In this document: piece by piece, positions 48,171-56,853 of the stretch
Position numbering within the stretch: position 1 is the first letter of the stretch
Layout of the letters: the number at the start of each line of letters is the position of its first letter
Origin: a virus
Taxonomy: Duplodnaviria; Caudoviricetes
Virus record (IMG/VR): IMGVR_UViG_3300020195_000410
Span: 1,972-65,971 of that record
Strand: one strand, 5' to 3'
DNA: 64,000 bases
The notes under the pieces: generated by a model
Database searches by the model: none
Told to the model about the DNA's origin: nothing
The model's input: only the letters and a program-made list of their open reading frames with translations
Translations under genes and position numbers: made by a program

Positions 48171-48199
48171 TTGCAAAATTTGTTCGAGACGACTACTAT
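48171..48199 (+). promoter_or_regulatory. sigma70-type promoter TTGCAA-N17-TACTAT for the tRNA operon
   Basis: Consensus spacing. Confidence 0.75.
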
Positions 48200-48250
48200 A
48201 TCATTACACGTGAGCGAAGTGCTCACACAACGAGAGAAAAAGAGTTCATC

Positions 48251-48307
48251 ATGCGATCCTTGCTAAGTTCATTGTCGAGTCTGTTTTATTCCCTTACAAG
48301 GGGATAA
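48251..48307 (+). CDS. attenuator leader peptide MRSLLSSLSSLFYSLTRG
   Basis: Between promoter and terminator; 13 consecutive Ser/Leu/Phe/Tyr codons matching downstream tRNAs. Confidence 0.8.
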   Translation: MRSLLSSLSSLFYSLTRG

Positions 48308-48334
48308 CGCAACCGCTATGGACTATGCTCAGGG

Positions 48335-48379
48335 AAAAAAGCCCGGCAACCCAAGTGGTTGCCGGGCTTTTTTGTTTTT
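48335..48379 (+). terminator. attenuator terminator
   Basis: gcccggcaacc/ggttgccgggc + ttttttgttttt. Confidence 0.9.
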
Positions 48380-48413
48380 GTCGCTAATGTGAAAGAAGGA
48401 AAAGAACGAAGAC

Positions 48414-48487
48414 GGTGATGTAGACCAATGGCAGGAGTCGCCAGCATGAGAGGCTGGACAGTGTGGGTTCGAATCCCACCATCACCA
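48414..48487 (+). tRNA. tRNA-Leu(GAG), short variable loop
   Basis: ggtgatg/catcacc; ccagc-atGAGag-gctgg; ttcgaat. Confidence 0.85.
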
Positions 48488-48493
48488 CTAGAT

Positions 48494-48567
48494 GCCCAAG
48501 TAGACCAACGGCAGGAGTCGTCAGTTTCAAAAACTGAACAGTGTGAGTTCGAGTCTCACCTTGGGTA
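48494..48567 (+). tRNA. tRNA-Leu(CAA), short variable loop
   Basis: tcagt-ttCAAaa-actga. Confidence 0.85.
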
Positions 48568-48570
48568 TAT

Positions 48571-48644
48571 GGCACCGTAGACCAACGGCAGGAGTCGCCA
48601 GCATCAGAGGCTGGATAGTGTGGGTTCGAATCCCACCGGTGCTA
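48571..48644 (+). tRNA. tRNA-Leu(CAG), short variable loop
   Basis: ccagc-atCAGag-gctgg. Confidence 0.85.
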
Positions 48645-48655
48645 CTACAAATTTT

Positions 48656-48735
48656 GGAAGTGCTGCTGTGTGGGAACAGGCCGTCGCTGTAACCGACGTG
48701 TCTCTGACTAGGGGGTTCGATTCCTCACACTTCCA
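48656..48735 (+). tRNA. tRNA-Tyr(GTA), atypical D-arm
   Basis: cgtcg-ctGTAac-cgacg; ggaagtg/cacttcc. Confidence 0.75.
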
Positions 48736-48744
48736 CTGATGATT

Positions 48745-48828
48745 GCCCATGTGGTGAAACAGGTAAACGCACATGTTTCAAAAACATGCCTCTTAAGTGA
48801 GTTGCAGGTTCGATTCCTGCCATGGGCA
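48745..48828 (+). tRNA. tRNA-Leu(CAA), long arm
   Basis: catgt-ttCAAaa-acatg. Confidence 0.9.
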
Positions 48829-48832
48829 CTAT

Positions 48833-48920
48833 GGATTAGTAACTCGACCGGCGTCGGGCACTGTTTTGAAAACAGTTGGAGCTATGAGAATAGCTTGGGG
48901 ATCGACACCTCACTTCTCCG
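48833..48920 (+). tRNA. tRNA-Ser(TGA), atypical (6-bp D stem, two acceptor mismatches)
   Basis: actgt-ttTGAaa-acagt; ctcgac-cggc-gtcggg. Confidence 0.7.
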
Positions 48921-48952
48921 CTTGTTGATCTTTGACAACTTGGATATGATAC

Positions 48953-53729: not shown

Positions 53730-54926
53730 ATGGCAAAAGCCACATTTACTTGCGAAAAACCCCACGTGAACGTGGGAACAATCGGTCACATTGACCATGG
53801 AAAAACGACTCTGACAGCAGCAATTCTGGCTGTGCAGGCCAAGAAAGGTCTGGCCACAGCAAAGAGCTACATGGACGTGTCGAAGGGCGGTATCGTTCGT
53901 GACCCAACAAAGCAGGTGACAATCATCACCAGCCACGTTGAGTACGAGACCGAAACTCGACACTACGCACACATTGACTGTCCGGGACACGCCGACTACA
54001 TCAAGAACATGATTACCGGTGCGGCCCAGATGGACGGGGCGATTCTGCTGATTTCGGCAGTTGATGGCCCCATGCCTCAAACTCGTGAACATATTCTCTT
54101 GGCTCGCCAAGTGGATGTTCCCGCTCTGGTTGTGTTCCTCAACAAGTGCGATCTGGTCGATGATCCAGAAATCATCGAACTGGTTGAACTCGAAGCCCGT
54201 GAACTCCTTACAAAATTTGGATTCGACGGAGAGAACACCCCAGTCATTCGAGGCAATGCCAAGGCGGCTCTGGACTACCCAGATGACGCTGTTGCCAACA
54301 AGTGTATCGTTGATTTGCTGGATGCTCTGGACAACTACGTTACGGTCCCAGAGCGTCGTACAGAGAAGTCTTTTCTGTTGGCAATCGAAGGTGTGCATCA
54401 GATTGAAGGTCGTGGAACAGTTGCCACTGGCAAGATCGAACAAGGCAAGTGCCGTGTCGGTGACAAGGTTCAAATCGTCGGCTTGACCGACACGCTGGAG
54501 AGTACAATCACCGGCGTCGAGATGTTTAACAAGCCGCTGGATGAAGGTCTGGCGGGCCACAACGTGGGAATTTTGCTGCGTGGAATCAAGGGTGAGGACA
54601 TCGAACGAGGGCAAGTGGTTATCACTCCGAACTCGATCAAGCCGCACACGAAGTTCAAGGCAAAGGTCTACGTGTTGTCGAAGGAAGATGGCGGTCGGCA
54701 CACTCCGTTCTTTGACGGATACAAGCCACAGTTCTACTTCCGCACGACCGACGTGACTGGTTCTGCCAATCTGCTCAATGGAGTGGAGATGGCCGTTCCG
54801 GGTGACGTTGTGGATGTCGAGGTTACGCTTGGCAAGGTTGTTGCTCTGGAAGCAGGCAGCAAGTTCGCCATTCGAGAAGGTGGCAAGACCGTTGGTTCCG
54901 GTGTTGTTGCTGAGATTGTTGCATAA
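53730..54926 (+). CDS. tuf: elongation factor Tu
   Basis: [49 protein letters not shown]. Confidence 0.98.
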
Positions 54927-55021
54927 ACCAATCGAACAAAGACGTTAAAAAGTTGACGATAATTTCAGAGGCGTCATCTACGTTGGCCGAAGTACAAGGC
55001 GTCATCTTTGTTCGATTTCAT

Positions 55022-55094
55022 GGCTCGGTAGGCAAAGGCAGACCACAAACATTTAGAATGTTTGATGCTGTGGGTTCGAGTCCCACCTGAGCTA
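55022..55094 (+). tRNA. tRNA-Leu(TAG), short variable loop
   Basis: aaaca-ttTAGaa-tgttt; ggctcgg/ctgagct. Confidence 0.8.
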
Positions 55095-55108
55095 CTTTGG
55101 AGAAAAAC

Positions 55109-55354
55109 GTGAACTATTTCAACACGATGATGTCGCTCAACAACTTGCAAATTTTGTTGAACACATTTCAATTGGGGTTCTTGTACAACGCTCTTGTGCG
55201 AAGATTGAGTGTTGTTCCACATCCACCGGATACAATTTATCCAGTGATATTGGCGTGTATCGGCATTGTTCTTTACATTCCGCTATTTGTAACAAGACAA
55301 CAATTGTTGCGTCGAAAGAACAAAGATGATACATCACAGATTGGCCACAAATAA
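55109..55354 (+). CDS. small membrane protein
   Basis: Hydrophobic segments; GGAG RBS before GTG. Confidence 0.5.
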   Translation: MNYFNTMMSLNNLQILLNTFQLGFLYNALVRRLSVVPHPPDTIYPVILACIGIVLYIPLFVTRQQLLRRKNKDDTSQIGHK

Positions 55355-55535
55355 CGAACAACATTTTGGGGTCAATGTGAACCATGAAAAGACTCGTGTT
55401 TTGCTTCAGCTAGGAGACGGGATGGAGCAAGTGCGAGTGCAGTTGACGGCAGATGAGGTTGATCAAGTCATCACTCATCTGCAACAACGAAGAGAAGAGA
55501 TTAGGCCCAGCGAACAGCTTGGCCAAGAAGATTGA
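55326..55535 (+). CDS. hypothetical protein
   Basis: 69 aa ORF. Confidence 0.5.
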   Translation: MIHHRLATNNEQHFGVNVNHEKTRVLLQLGDGMEQVRVQLTADEVDQVITHLQQRREEIRPSEQLGQED

Positions 55536-55537
55536 TT

Positions 55538-55618
55538 GTCCAAGTGGTGAAATGGCAGACACGCCAGCTTGAGGGGCTGGTGCCGCAAGGTGTGGAGGTT
55601 CGAGTCCTCTCTTGGACA
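55538..55618 (+). tRNA. tRNA-Leu(GAG), long arm
   Basis: ccagc-ttGAGgg-gctgg. Confidence 0.92.
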
Positions 55619-55669
55619 CTATGTTGACGAGTGTGTTGGTACAAGTGGCAGCAAGCCTCATTGGAGTAA

Positions 55670-56062
55670 TTGCATTATATGTCTACCACAACTGGAAGAG
55701 ATAATGGATTGCTTCCATGCGGACATGAAAAGAAGTATTCCTATTTTCATCCAGCTTTGGTAGGATCTTCTAGGTTTCGCTGTGGCAAGTGCGATGATCC
55801 AAACAGGAATACAAGAGCAATGCAAGAACTAGAACCAGAACAACAGCAATTGCCAAAGAAACCGTGTGTGATATGCGGAACAGAGTTGGAGTGTGCGGTT
55901 CAAGATTGGACCACTTACCAGCCATACAAGGGTGGTGAAATTCAGTTGTTGTTTGGATATGGCTCTTGCAAGTTTGATCTGAACTTGCATGGCACGGTGT
56001 TCCGTGGAATCATCTGTGATGATTGTTCAGAGAAGTTGGTCCAGAAGATGGACCCAAAATAA
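55670..56062 (+). CDS. Cys-rich hypothetical protein (start uncertain)
   Basis: CVIC and CDDC pairs. Confidence 0.5.
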   Translation: MHYMSTTTGRDNGLLPCGHEKKYSYFHPALVGSSRFRCGKCDDPNRNTRAMQELEPEQQQLPKKPCVICGTELECAVQDWTTYQPYKGGEIQLLFGYGSCKFDLNLHGTVFRGIICDDCSEKLVQKMDPK

Positions 56063-56065
56063 TCT

Positions 56066-56147
56066 GGCCTCGTGGTGAAACTGGCAGACACGCATGACTC
56101 AAAATCATGTGCCGCAAGGCGTGAGGGTTCGACTCCCTCCGAGGCCA
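56066..56147 (+). tRNA. tRNA-Leu(CAA), long arm
   Basis: catga-ctCAAaa-tcatg. Confidence 0.92.
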
Positions 56148-56150
56148 CCT

Positions 56151-56462
56151 ATGAGTAAAATCGAAATCCCCGGATTCTATCGCTTCCTCAGAAGGCGAAC
56201 AAGAACCAAAATTCTCAACAAGCAACGTCATGGTTATCGAGGCGTCAAGCAACGATATTCTGTTTGGCGAGCGGAATACAACCAGAAATGGGAAAAGTCC
56301 GACAAAGATCTTGTTGAGAGAATCTGCCGTGACAACGAACTGAATCTCTGTGATTACTTCGTTGGAGACGAAAACGAAAGAACTCCTTGGGAGAAGACAC
56401 TAAATAAACTCAGATCCGCTGGGTTCGGATTGTCCAAGTCACCGATCAAGGAGTTATCATGA
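56151..56462 (+). CDS. hypothetical protein
   Basis: MSKIEIPGFY... Confidence 0.6.
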   Translation: MSKIEIPGFYRFLRRRTRTKILNKQRHGYRGVKQRYSVWRAEYNQKWEKSDKDLVERICRDNELNLCDYFVGDENERTPWEKTLNKLRSAGFGLSKSPIKELS

Positions 56463-56557
56463 TGAAAGTTTTAGATGAATGTATGTGTGCGGTTTGTCAG
56501 GCAGAGCGTCAGTTAATCGAACTGATGAAACAGCTAGAAGCAACAAATAGCTAATAA

Positions 56558-56767
56558 ATGACAGAAGAATGTCCCAAAAGAGAATGTTTCCATTGGATTC
56601 CTCCCGGTGGAGCCGCAGACATGTCTAGGAAGACTCACAAATCCGTTCAGGATGCGTTCAAAGACGGCAAGTGGGTGAGTTTCCCAGAAGGCGGTTGTTC
56701 ATGCACATGGGGGTCATGCAATCGAATTGACCCAGCTAGTGAAGATGATTTTTTTGAACCATGCTAA
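56558..56767 (+). CDS. small Cys-rich protein
   Basis: 69 aa ORF. Confidence 0.5.
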   Translation: MTEECPKRECFHWIPPGGAADMSRKTHKSVQDAFKDGKWVSFPEGGCSCTWGSCNRIDPASEDDFFEPC

Positions 56768-56769
56768 AT

Positions 56770-56853
56770 GGCCTCGTGGCGTAATTGGTAGCCGCACAGA
56801 GCTTAAGCCTCTGTATCCTTGGTGATGTGAGGGTTCGACTCCCTCCGAGGCCA
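56770..56853 (+). tRNA. tRNA-Leu(TAA), long arm
   Basis: cagag-ctTAAgc-ctctg. Confidence 0.9.

Follow-up and report, generated by a model that had tools for sequence, protein, structure and literature searches.

Multivalent attenuators are a familiar feature of enterobacterial amino acid operons. The ilvGMEDA leader contains Ile, Leu, and Val codons, the thr leader contains Thr and Ile codons, and trp, his, leu, and pheA are attenuated as well. The same logic reaches the translation apparatus in the pheST operon of Escherichia coli, whose attenuator, with the leader pheM, responds to a single amino acid and governs a synthetase. A different solution is the T-box riboswitch, which binds uncharged tRNA directly and needs no ribosome. 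The genes for tRNAs are usually thought to be controlled at their promoters, through growth rate, the stringent response, or repressors, and the E. coli thrU-tyrU-glyT-thrT-tufB operon, which encodes tRNAs together with EF-Tu, is not known to have a leader open reading frame (ORF) or attenuator. For pheA, an attenuation model has been published (PMC3082878). The subject here is an element of about 210 nucleotides (nt), at 48171 to 48380 in a 64,000-nt stretch of DNA that makes up nearly the whole of a 65,971-bp virus contig (IMG/VR record IMGVR_UViG_3300020195_000410, positions 1,972 to 65,971) and is referred to below as the window. The element precedes a block of Leu, Ser, Phe, and Tyr tRNA genes that also encodes EF-Tu. 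Its layout and modeled folds make it likely that it is a trp-style, multivalent leader-peptide transcription attenuator of this phage tRNA/EF-Tu block.

How does the locus compare with what is known? It resembles the enterobacterial multivalent attenuators in that a short ORF lies near the promoter and contains regulatory codons for more than one amino acid, an intrinsic terminator follows, and an upstream hairpin that excludes the terminator is predicted to form or not according to the position of the ribosome. Unlike them, it is phage-borne, the genes it would regulate encode tRNAs and EF-Tu rather than biosynthetic enzymes, the product would act directly on the sensor, and the leader samples nearly every anticodon class rather than iterating a single codon. 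It would share with pheST the attenuation of a component of the translation apparatus via cognate codons, but what it would control is the tRNA genes themselves, and its codons are for four amino acids. As in the T-box, the status of tRNA would decide termination upstream of translation-apparatus genes, except that the phage element is proposed to be ribosome dependent. Its tRNA and EF-Tu genes lie in one co-directional unit like those of the tufB operon, from which it differs in tRNA isotypes and in having a leader ORF and a probable attenuator; the tRNA-tuf order is also found in many metagenome loci. No match to the Rfam leader families (His, Thr, Leu, Trp, and Phe) or to the T-box was found at E <= 1 in 47900 to 57300, and on 48278 to 48411 the only Rfam overlaps were sub-threshold small RNA and terminator look-alikes.

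The nearest published regulation of a tRNA array that we found is that of the trn operon (L-array) of Anabaena sp. PCC 7120, which is silent until translation is impaired and is controlled by the repressor TrcR binding to repeats at the -10 box (PMC8421152, PMC10272220). The likeness lies in an accessory tRNA array that comes on when translation falters, as is proposed here; the difference lies in the means, a repressor at the promoter there and a leader attenuator here. The words "leader" and "attenuat" occur in neither article (PMC8421152, PMC10272220). Full-text searches, which left subscription journals and supplements outside, found no published account of leader-peptide control of tRNA genes. 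The idea that E. coli pheV and pheU have attenuator-like leaders was dropped, the K-12 record having upstream gaps of about 105 nt with no annotated leader. Multivalent attenuator logic is known, and its use to control tRNA genes would be new as far as the literature found goes.

To describe the locus from its upstream end, all features lie on the + strand, in the order upstream terminator, promoter, short ORF, strong terminator, and tRNAs. The gene at 47254 to 47928 ends in a predicted intrinsic terminator (48038 to 48069; 14 pairs, 9 of them G-C, and a T-run) by which the leader unit is shielded from upstream transcription. A sigma-70-like promoter follows by pattern match at 48171 to 48199, with the -35 box TTGCAA (48171 to 48176), a 17-nt spacer, and the -10 box TACTAT (48194 to 48199). 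The 5' untranslated region (5' UTR) is predicted to form a GUGAGC/GCUCAC hairpin (48210 to 48226), a counterpart of which is kept in the closest relative, and holds a purine-rich AAGAG (48240 to 48244), a weak Shine-Dalgarno (SD)-like signal. The leader ORF, MRSLLSSLSSLFYSLTRG, occupies 48251 to 48307, with its ATG at 48251, 18 sense codons, and a TAA at 48305 to 48307. The attenuator terminator, AAAAAAGCCCGGCAACC / GGUUGCCGGGCUUUUUU plus a T-run (48335 to 48379), has a hairpin of 17 pairs (9 G-C) at 48335 to 48373; its core, CCCGGCA[GA]C...G[CT]TGCCGGG, is common to the relatives described below at one copy per contig. An earlier note on this DNA, made from the sequence alone, had picked out a promoter at 48171, the exact 18-codon ORF, and a terminator at 48341 to 48373, which is the core of the 17-pair hairpin. 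It had also named, as a finding that would overturn its proposal, a tRNA promoter downstream of the terminator. No promoter-like site was found in the window's gap between terminator and first tRNA, which measures 41 nt (17 nt in two relatives, L143 and L145); gaps of this size leave no room for a separate promoter.

Behind the terminator, the tRNA array extends from 48414 to 56855 (ARAGORN, Rfam). The default ARAGORN run reports 21 tRNAs (12 Leu, 4 Ser, 3 Phe, and 2 Tyr), with none elsewhere in the window, and the relaxed run (-ps90) reports 26 (13 Leu, 7 Ser, 3 Phe, 2 Tyr, and 1 odd Tyr-like), all of them on the + strand; the 25 counted in the earlier note are about right. Rfam gives 17 tRNA hits above the gathering score, or 18 plus 5 sub-threshold tRNA-Sec-like hits in E-value mode. 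The array thus holds 2.5 to 3.1 tRNA genes per kb (21 to 26 in 8.44 kb), which in number and density makes it a tRNA array unit, defined as one with no fewer than 20 tRNA genes and a density of 2 per kb or higher (PMC4758250). Within the array, 53730 to 54926 (+) encodes a phage EF-Tu of 398 amino acids (GTP_EFTU, E 7.1e-54; domain 2, E 4.5e-17; domain 3, E 8.1e-35). No strong + strand terminator was found to interrupt the tRNA block.

What ties the leader to this array is its codons. Leu, Ser, Phe, and Tyr account for 13 of the 17 codons after the start, and the 13 are consecutive (codons 3 to 15, at 48257 to 48295), forming the proposed sensing segment. They represent 10 anticodon classes, for every one of which the array encodes an exactly cognate tRNA, and of the array's 11 classes UAA alone is unsampled, so the near one-for-one match reported earlier holds. 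The four amino acids make up a share of 0.217 of the codons in the window's long ORFs, and about 3e-4 such runs would be expected in the window (0.217^13 x 128,000 start positions); under a loose rule, the only other leader-like ORF there is a poly-Phe tract at 31192 to 31230. Taken alone, the anticodon-class diversity of the window's leader is not significant (P = 0.13 under uniform synonymous choice and 0.07 under locus usage). Across nine distinct leaders, which are related rather than independent, 89 of a possible 99 classes are used, against resampled means of 77.0 (uniform synonymous choice) and 71.6 (locus codon usage), and 89 was reached in none of 20,000 resamplings.

The other leaders come from relatives found by two routes. 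A search with EF-Tu yielded 31 IMG/VR loci, of which the closest by EF-Tu identity (L001, 88%; L002, 71%; L027, 70%; L003, 67%) have Leu/Ser/Phe/Tyr arrays around EF-Tu with a short ORF rich in the same residues and a terminator upstream; more distant EF-Tu phages have mixed arrays and no such ORF. In L002-type contigs, the first gene behind the terminator encodes a 99-amino-acid protein with an S24/LexA-like peptidase domain (L002 2759 to 3058). This protein has 4,283 database homologues at E <= 0.001, a number suggesting that environmental data often contain this phage lineage. Thirty of the homologues were aligned, and the alignment led to 39 IMG/VR loci (the homologues lie at position 10001 of L142 to L180), adding leaders with Leu/Ser/Phe/Tyr arrays in L143, L145, L146, L147, L168, and L171/L172; among these S24-derived loci, none was found where the gene does not stand beside such an array. 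One homologue is named by its source as from a metagenome-assembled genome of Gemmataceae, which may hint at the host.

In all, the layout recurs on 10 further uncultured giant-phage contigs, 11 with the window, and a terminator stands behind each leader. The promoter form TTGMAA-N17-TAC[CT]AT precedes the leaders of L001, L002, L003, and L027 by pattern match and those of L143, L145, L146, L147, L168, and L171 by eye. The leader peptides are MQSLFSSLSSLYYSLLSGEE (L001), MTFSFSSSLLYLYSLSREHDTVMD (L171), VNFFSLSLSLFSSSSLFSYSAEGGCTV (L002), VNFLSLLSLSLFTLLSSYSTGGGCIV (L003), MNVFLLSLSSLSGLFYSSGSGCIL (L027), VNTLSLSLSLSYSSLYLFSDGEGCVLT (the same in L143 and L145), MNVLSSVLFSLSYSSLSSGPEEGV (L146), VNKFSYQLSSLSSSLLFSNDRGGCVR (L147), and VDKFFYQLSSLSSSLLFSNVWGGCVR (L168). 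Conserved among them are the set of four amino acids and the frame, while the order of residues varies; between the window and L001, every difference in the run stays within the set (L to F, F to Y, or synonymous). The earlier note had staked its proposal on a leader/anticodon match in related phages, and the match seen in the window recurs on the 10 other contigs. When 69 phage loci were tallied, 11 had both a leader-like ORF and a run of at least 5 consecutive Leu/Ser/Phe/Tyr tRNAs, 3 had the run only, 3 had the ORF only (including L168, whose contig ends before the array), and 52 had neither; these loci are related, so the tally is a description and carries no probability. A further candidate, in L174 (8142 to 8252, ending in ALSLSLLSSSLSSLCL), was kept out of the counts, its start being uncertain and the 5' arm of its terminator lying inside the ORF. 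L174 is AT-rich, and the array after its short ORF contains only three Leu, three Ser, and one Cys tRNA (8339 to 9809); this could be a case of a leader matched in composition to an array with other contents.

Could a ribosome on the leader influence the terminator? In the folding analysis, the ribosome footprint was masked and the best fold with the terminator was compared with the best fold without it, the difference being the non-terminator penalty. For the window, this penalty is 14.2 kcal/mol with no ribosome, 5.9 to 10.0 kcal/mol with a ribosome stalled at the 13 codons, and 21.3 kcal/mol with a ribosome at the stop codon. When terminator pairs were penalized, the constrained fold gave a predicted antiterminator hairpin of 19 pairs at 48309 to 48362 (+), comprising 48309-17/48354-62, 48319-21/48351-53, 48326-29/48345-48, and 48332-34/48342-44, which draws in the 5' arm and loop of the terminator together with the first 6 nt of the 3' arm. 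The stop codon lies directly 5' of the segment needed for this hairpin, and a terminating ribosome would cover 48309 to 48317. With no ribosome, 48266 to 48296 pairs with 48297 to 48324 in a leader hairpin of which the run is the 5' strand. In L002-type leaders, the 3' end of the ORF supplies the antiterminator strand, GG(N)GGCUGC, and this accounts for their conserved GGC-containing tails; that strand is predicted to pair with GCAGCC in the 5' arm of the terminator, with a GGGG/CCCC hairpin enclosed between the two. The probability that the 5' arm is paired upstream is 0.76 to 0.93 in these leaders when the ribosome is stalled mid-leader vs 0.46 to 0.50 when it is at the stop codon. The terminator helix itself, aligned over seven relatives, is paired in 82 of 82 cells with 2 compensatory pairs.

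These values were set against those of dinucleotide-shuffled upstream segments. In neither the window nor L171 did any of 60 shuffles reach the stalled value or the stop-minus-stalled difference; L143 has 0 and 1 such shuffles of 60, respectively, and L168 has 2 and 3 of 60. Support from the shuffles is weaker for L146, L003, L027, L002, and L147 and absent for L001. Overall, no more than 2 of 60 shuffles matched the stalled value in 6 of the 10 leaders tested, and the direction of the ribosome effect is the same in 11 of 11 leaders, with a difference of at least 4 kcal/mol in 10 of them. With the ribosome masks that the earlier note had proposed, the alternative hairpin is predicted to compete when the ribosome is stalled and not when it is at the stop codon. 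Of the two competing pairings the note had drawn, the second (48309-48317 with 48354-48362) was reproduced exactly, and the first (48272-48294 with 48331-48349) appears in no predicted fold. Apart from that first pairing, its attenuator interpretation gains from the layout on 10 other contigs, the codon diversity, and an alternative fold that beats shuffles.

Starting from the observed anatomy and its conservation, and from the computed codon statistics and folds, the attenuator would work as follows. Transcription would begin at the 48171 promoter, and a ribosome would read the 18-codon leader as RNA polymerase nears the terminator. With rapid decoding of every Leu, Ser, Phe, and Tyr codon, the ribosome would arrive at the stop codon and cover 48309 to 48317, the alternative hairpin would be blocked, and the terminator (48335 to 48373) would fold and stop transcription 41 nt before the first tRNA. 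If any of about 10 tRNA species is scarce, the ribosome would stall inside 48257 to 48295, leaving 48309 to 48334 free to pair with 48342 to 48362; the terminator would be pre-empted and the polymerase would enter the tRNA genes and probably that of EF-Tu. Without translation, the run would pair with 48297 to 48324 and the terminator would form. Since a product tRNA would relieve the stall, the whole would gauge decoding capacity by negative feedback. What we infer in this scheme is that the leader is translated, that ribosomes stall in it, that polymerase reads through the terminator, and that all 8.5 kb are transcribed as one; the physiological trigger is likewise an inference. For EF-Tu, co-induction is suggested by its co-direction with the tRNA genes and the lack of a strong internal terminator. 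That the trigger might be host toxins or anticodon nucleases, and the purpose anti-defense, as the earlier note had it, is speculation.

Several points weigh against an attenuator. (i) The effect of ribosome position is partly trivial, as less free RNA leaves fewer alternative folds, which is why shuffles were used as the control. (ii) L001, the closest relative, with 88% EF-Tu identity, lacks the modeled switch (the difference is 1.0 kcal/mol and 40 of 60 shuffles equal it), and in L002, L003, L027, and L147 the stop-minus-stalled difference is matched by 11 to 18 of 60 shuffles. (iii) Covariation is silent on the antiterminator helices: in seven GGCUGC-type relatives, 98.5% of 68 cells are paired with 0 two-sided changes. 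(iv) Pairing with the anti-SD is -3.0 kcal/mol in the window, a value equaled by 31% of random positions, and -2.9 to -6.0 kcal/mol over the 11 leaders, with 4 to 31% of random positions as good. (v) The 8.5-kb tRNA block may contain internal promoters, with 16 promoter-like hits against 14.1 +/- 3.8 in shuffles. (vi) A gauge of this kind would presumably fire in amino acid starvation too, when extra tRNA is useless. (vii) Block screens found no leaders for the other tRNA blocks of a 532-kb relative, so the principle is not general in the lineage.

This last point deserves elaboration. The 532-kb record, which holds L002, has 59 tRNA matches. Its Leu/Ser/Phe/Tyr tRNAs lie on one strand at 473 to 499 kb, behind the leader, and tRNAs for Trp, Gly, Pro, Gln, Ile, Asp, Ala, Val, Arg, Met, Asn, Thr, and Glu lie at 0 to 36 kb. 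The description "Leu/Ser/Phe/Tyr-only" is accordingly right for the block and wrong for the phage, going by this relative with its 13 other isotypes in a separate region, and the block is, on the same evidence, a partition of a larger tRNA repertoire. Do the other partitions have leaders of their own? The earlier note had suggested looking for codon-matched leaders at other tRNA clusters, and for the other blocks of the 532-kb relative none was found. No strong + strand terminators occur at 1 to 20 kb, nothing was found at the contig junction, and upstream of 29 block starts the best short ORF, of only 8 residues, shares at most 0.5 of its residues with the isotypes of the block. A general screen of 76 loci gave convincing leaders only of the Leu/Ser/Phe/Tyr kind and no candidates in L032 to L036. 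As far as the screens reach, only the Leu/Ser/Phe/Tyr partition would be attenuator controlled in this lineage; three of its four amino acids, Leu, Ser, and Tyr, are those with long-variable-arm tRNAs in bacteria. In L011, a short ORF with an (MT)n repeat (MTMMTMMT...) and then a hairpin lie at 4233 to 4370, with Gly, Thr, Leu, and further tRNAs 1.1 kb downstream; this ORF may be only a tandem DNA repeat.

Must the short ORF be translated at all? The pyrimidine-rich strand could instead be the structural partner in an untranslated RNA element serving in processing, stability, or a fixed partial terminator, its frame being incidental. The weak SD, the pairing of the run with downstream purine-rich sequence in the no-ribosome fold, and the behavior of L001 would all suit such an element. 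A plain C/U-rich strand, however, would yield Pro, and no CCN codon occurs inside any run (the sole one over the 11 leaders is a CCG in the tail of L146). AGY, UAY, and NNR codons are instead frequent, with an AGY Ser codon in every leader; start, frame, and stop are maintained on the 11 contigs despite differing nucleotide sequence. The placement of the stop codon, right before the segment from which the alternative hairpin would be built, and an anticodon-class diversity above expectation also speak for translation, and we regard an untranslated element as unlikely.

A second alternative accepts the attenuator and disputes what it reads: it might report general translation status or the stage of infection, with any slowing of the ribosome or uncoupling of the polymerase opening it. 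Global elongation defects do act on every leader-peptide attenuator. Induction by general translational stress is described for the Anabaena tRNA operon (PMC8421152, PMC10272220). A general reporter of this kind would have no need for a frame limited to the block's own four amino acids or for a near-complete sampling of its anticodons, and it strikes us as slightly less probable than an untranslated element. Least probable of all, and by our estimate very improbable, is a true small hydrophobic-peptide gene with its own ordinary terminator and an independently transcribed array, for although a product rich in Leu, Ser, Phe, and Tyr is hydrophobic and the terminator is strong and two-faced (A-tract before, T-tract after), such a gene fits poorly with a residue order that varies with only membership in the four kept, the near absence of the membrane residues Ile, Val, Ala, Met, and Gly from the runs, a first tRNA only 17 to 41 nt past the terminator across a gap without a promoter-like site, and an ORF that tracks Leu/Ser/Phe/Tyr arrays as in the tally above, and it would not predict synonymous choices that maximize anticodon classes.

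The array has several features of its own. Beside seven normal long-arm Leu tRNAs there are five of 74 to 76 nt without the long variable arm (48414 to 48488, 48493 to 48568, 48571 to 48645, 48953 to 49027, and 55022 to 55095), with the anticodons GAG, CAA, CAG, UAA, and UAG, one each, so that a complete second Leu set exists on a class-I-like body. Four unusual Ser tRNAs (UGA, GCU, CGA, and GGA; 48833 to 48921, 49031 to 49116, 49123 to 49208, and 49301 to 49388) run parallel to more canonical ones at 49501, 49598, and 51442. Those at 49031 and 49301, detected by relaxed ARAGORN alone, fold with an 8-pair acceptor stem and a long D stem, and the best Infernal match of those at 48833 and 49123 is tRNA-Sec, below threshold. 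The small ORFs between the tRNA genes are all on the + strand and nearly all without a known family; one, at 51978 to 52145 (+), encodes a 55-amino-acid protein with a SEC-C metal-binding motif (E 9.9e-09). Among the relatives, the Leu/Ser/Phe/Tyr array of L002 includes a 91-nt tRNA with the amber-reading anticodon CUA (9218 to 9308; labeled "Pyl" by ARAGORN). Just upstream of the leader promoter, L002 (about 2400 to 2490) and L003 (about 4150 to 4225) share a conserved structured segment, GAACTGGCTG...GGCGTGCTGGTGTAG...AGCCAGCCAACCG, and upstream of the leader the 532-kb record has a 109-nt weak match to the tRNA model (38 bits; G001 498893 to 499001, -).

Elsewhere, the gene content of the window is phage-like, with an SbcC/SbcD-like pair and a B12-type ribonucleotide reductase gene (38509 to 42216, -) split by an intein with a LAGLIDADG endonuclease domain. 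Further searches added no relatives. Megablast of 48100 to 56900 against GenBank phages gave no near-identical phage and only one 68-nt tRNA match, and the upstream 224-amino-acid protein has no relatives in IMG/VR. DNA patterns for the promoter and 5' UTR brought up no new contig in IMG/VR; with one pattern 3 of 22 stretches were genuine, and with the other 1 of 1. Among metagenome contigs, the best 80 EF-Tu loci were all bacterial-type or without Leu/Ser/Phe/Tyr arrays. Comparison of 48000 to 49200 with contigs of four DNA runs turned up no variant of the leader, the matches being to the identical sequence or to unrelated terminators and tRNAs, and no RNA data set is listed as containing 48000 to 50000. 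Weak His/Thr-leader look-alikes at L001 18640 to 18770 (-) were rejected as an ordinary gene-end terminator.

What might such an attenuator be for? Because the leader samples nearly every anticodon class (10 of 11 in the window and 89 of 99 over the nine leaders), it could act as a roster, in which scarcity of just one tRNA species for Leu, Ser, Phe, or Tyr would switch on the whole set together with EF-Tu, and the tRNA genes would receive feedback through their own codons. This is a tentative step beyond the attenuator itself, one to which we give slightly less than an even chance. Under a roster, the shortage could stem from a codon mismatch with the host, from phage-induced turnover of tRNA, or from host anticodon nucleases. 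Being compact, the element could also be put to use as a natural biosensor that reads how well single tRNA species are supplied. As the leader spells out the codons that the phage would monitor, it makes testable what phage tRNAs compensate for. An attenuator before tRNA genes, if true, would be a direct feedback from decoding speed to tRNA supply, and it would explain how giant phages hold dozens of tRNA genes without a constant cost. Should the roster hold as well, the phage would have autonomous, self-limiting control of its decoding capacity.

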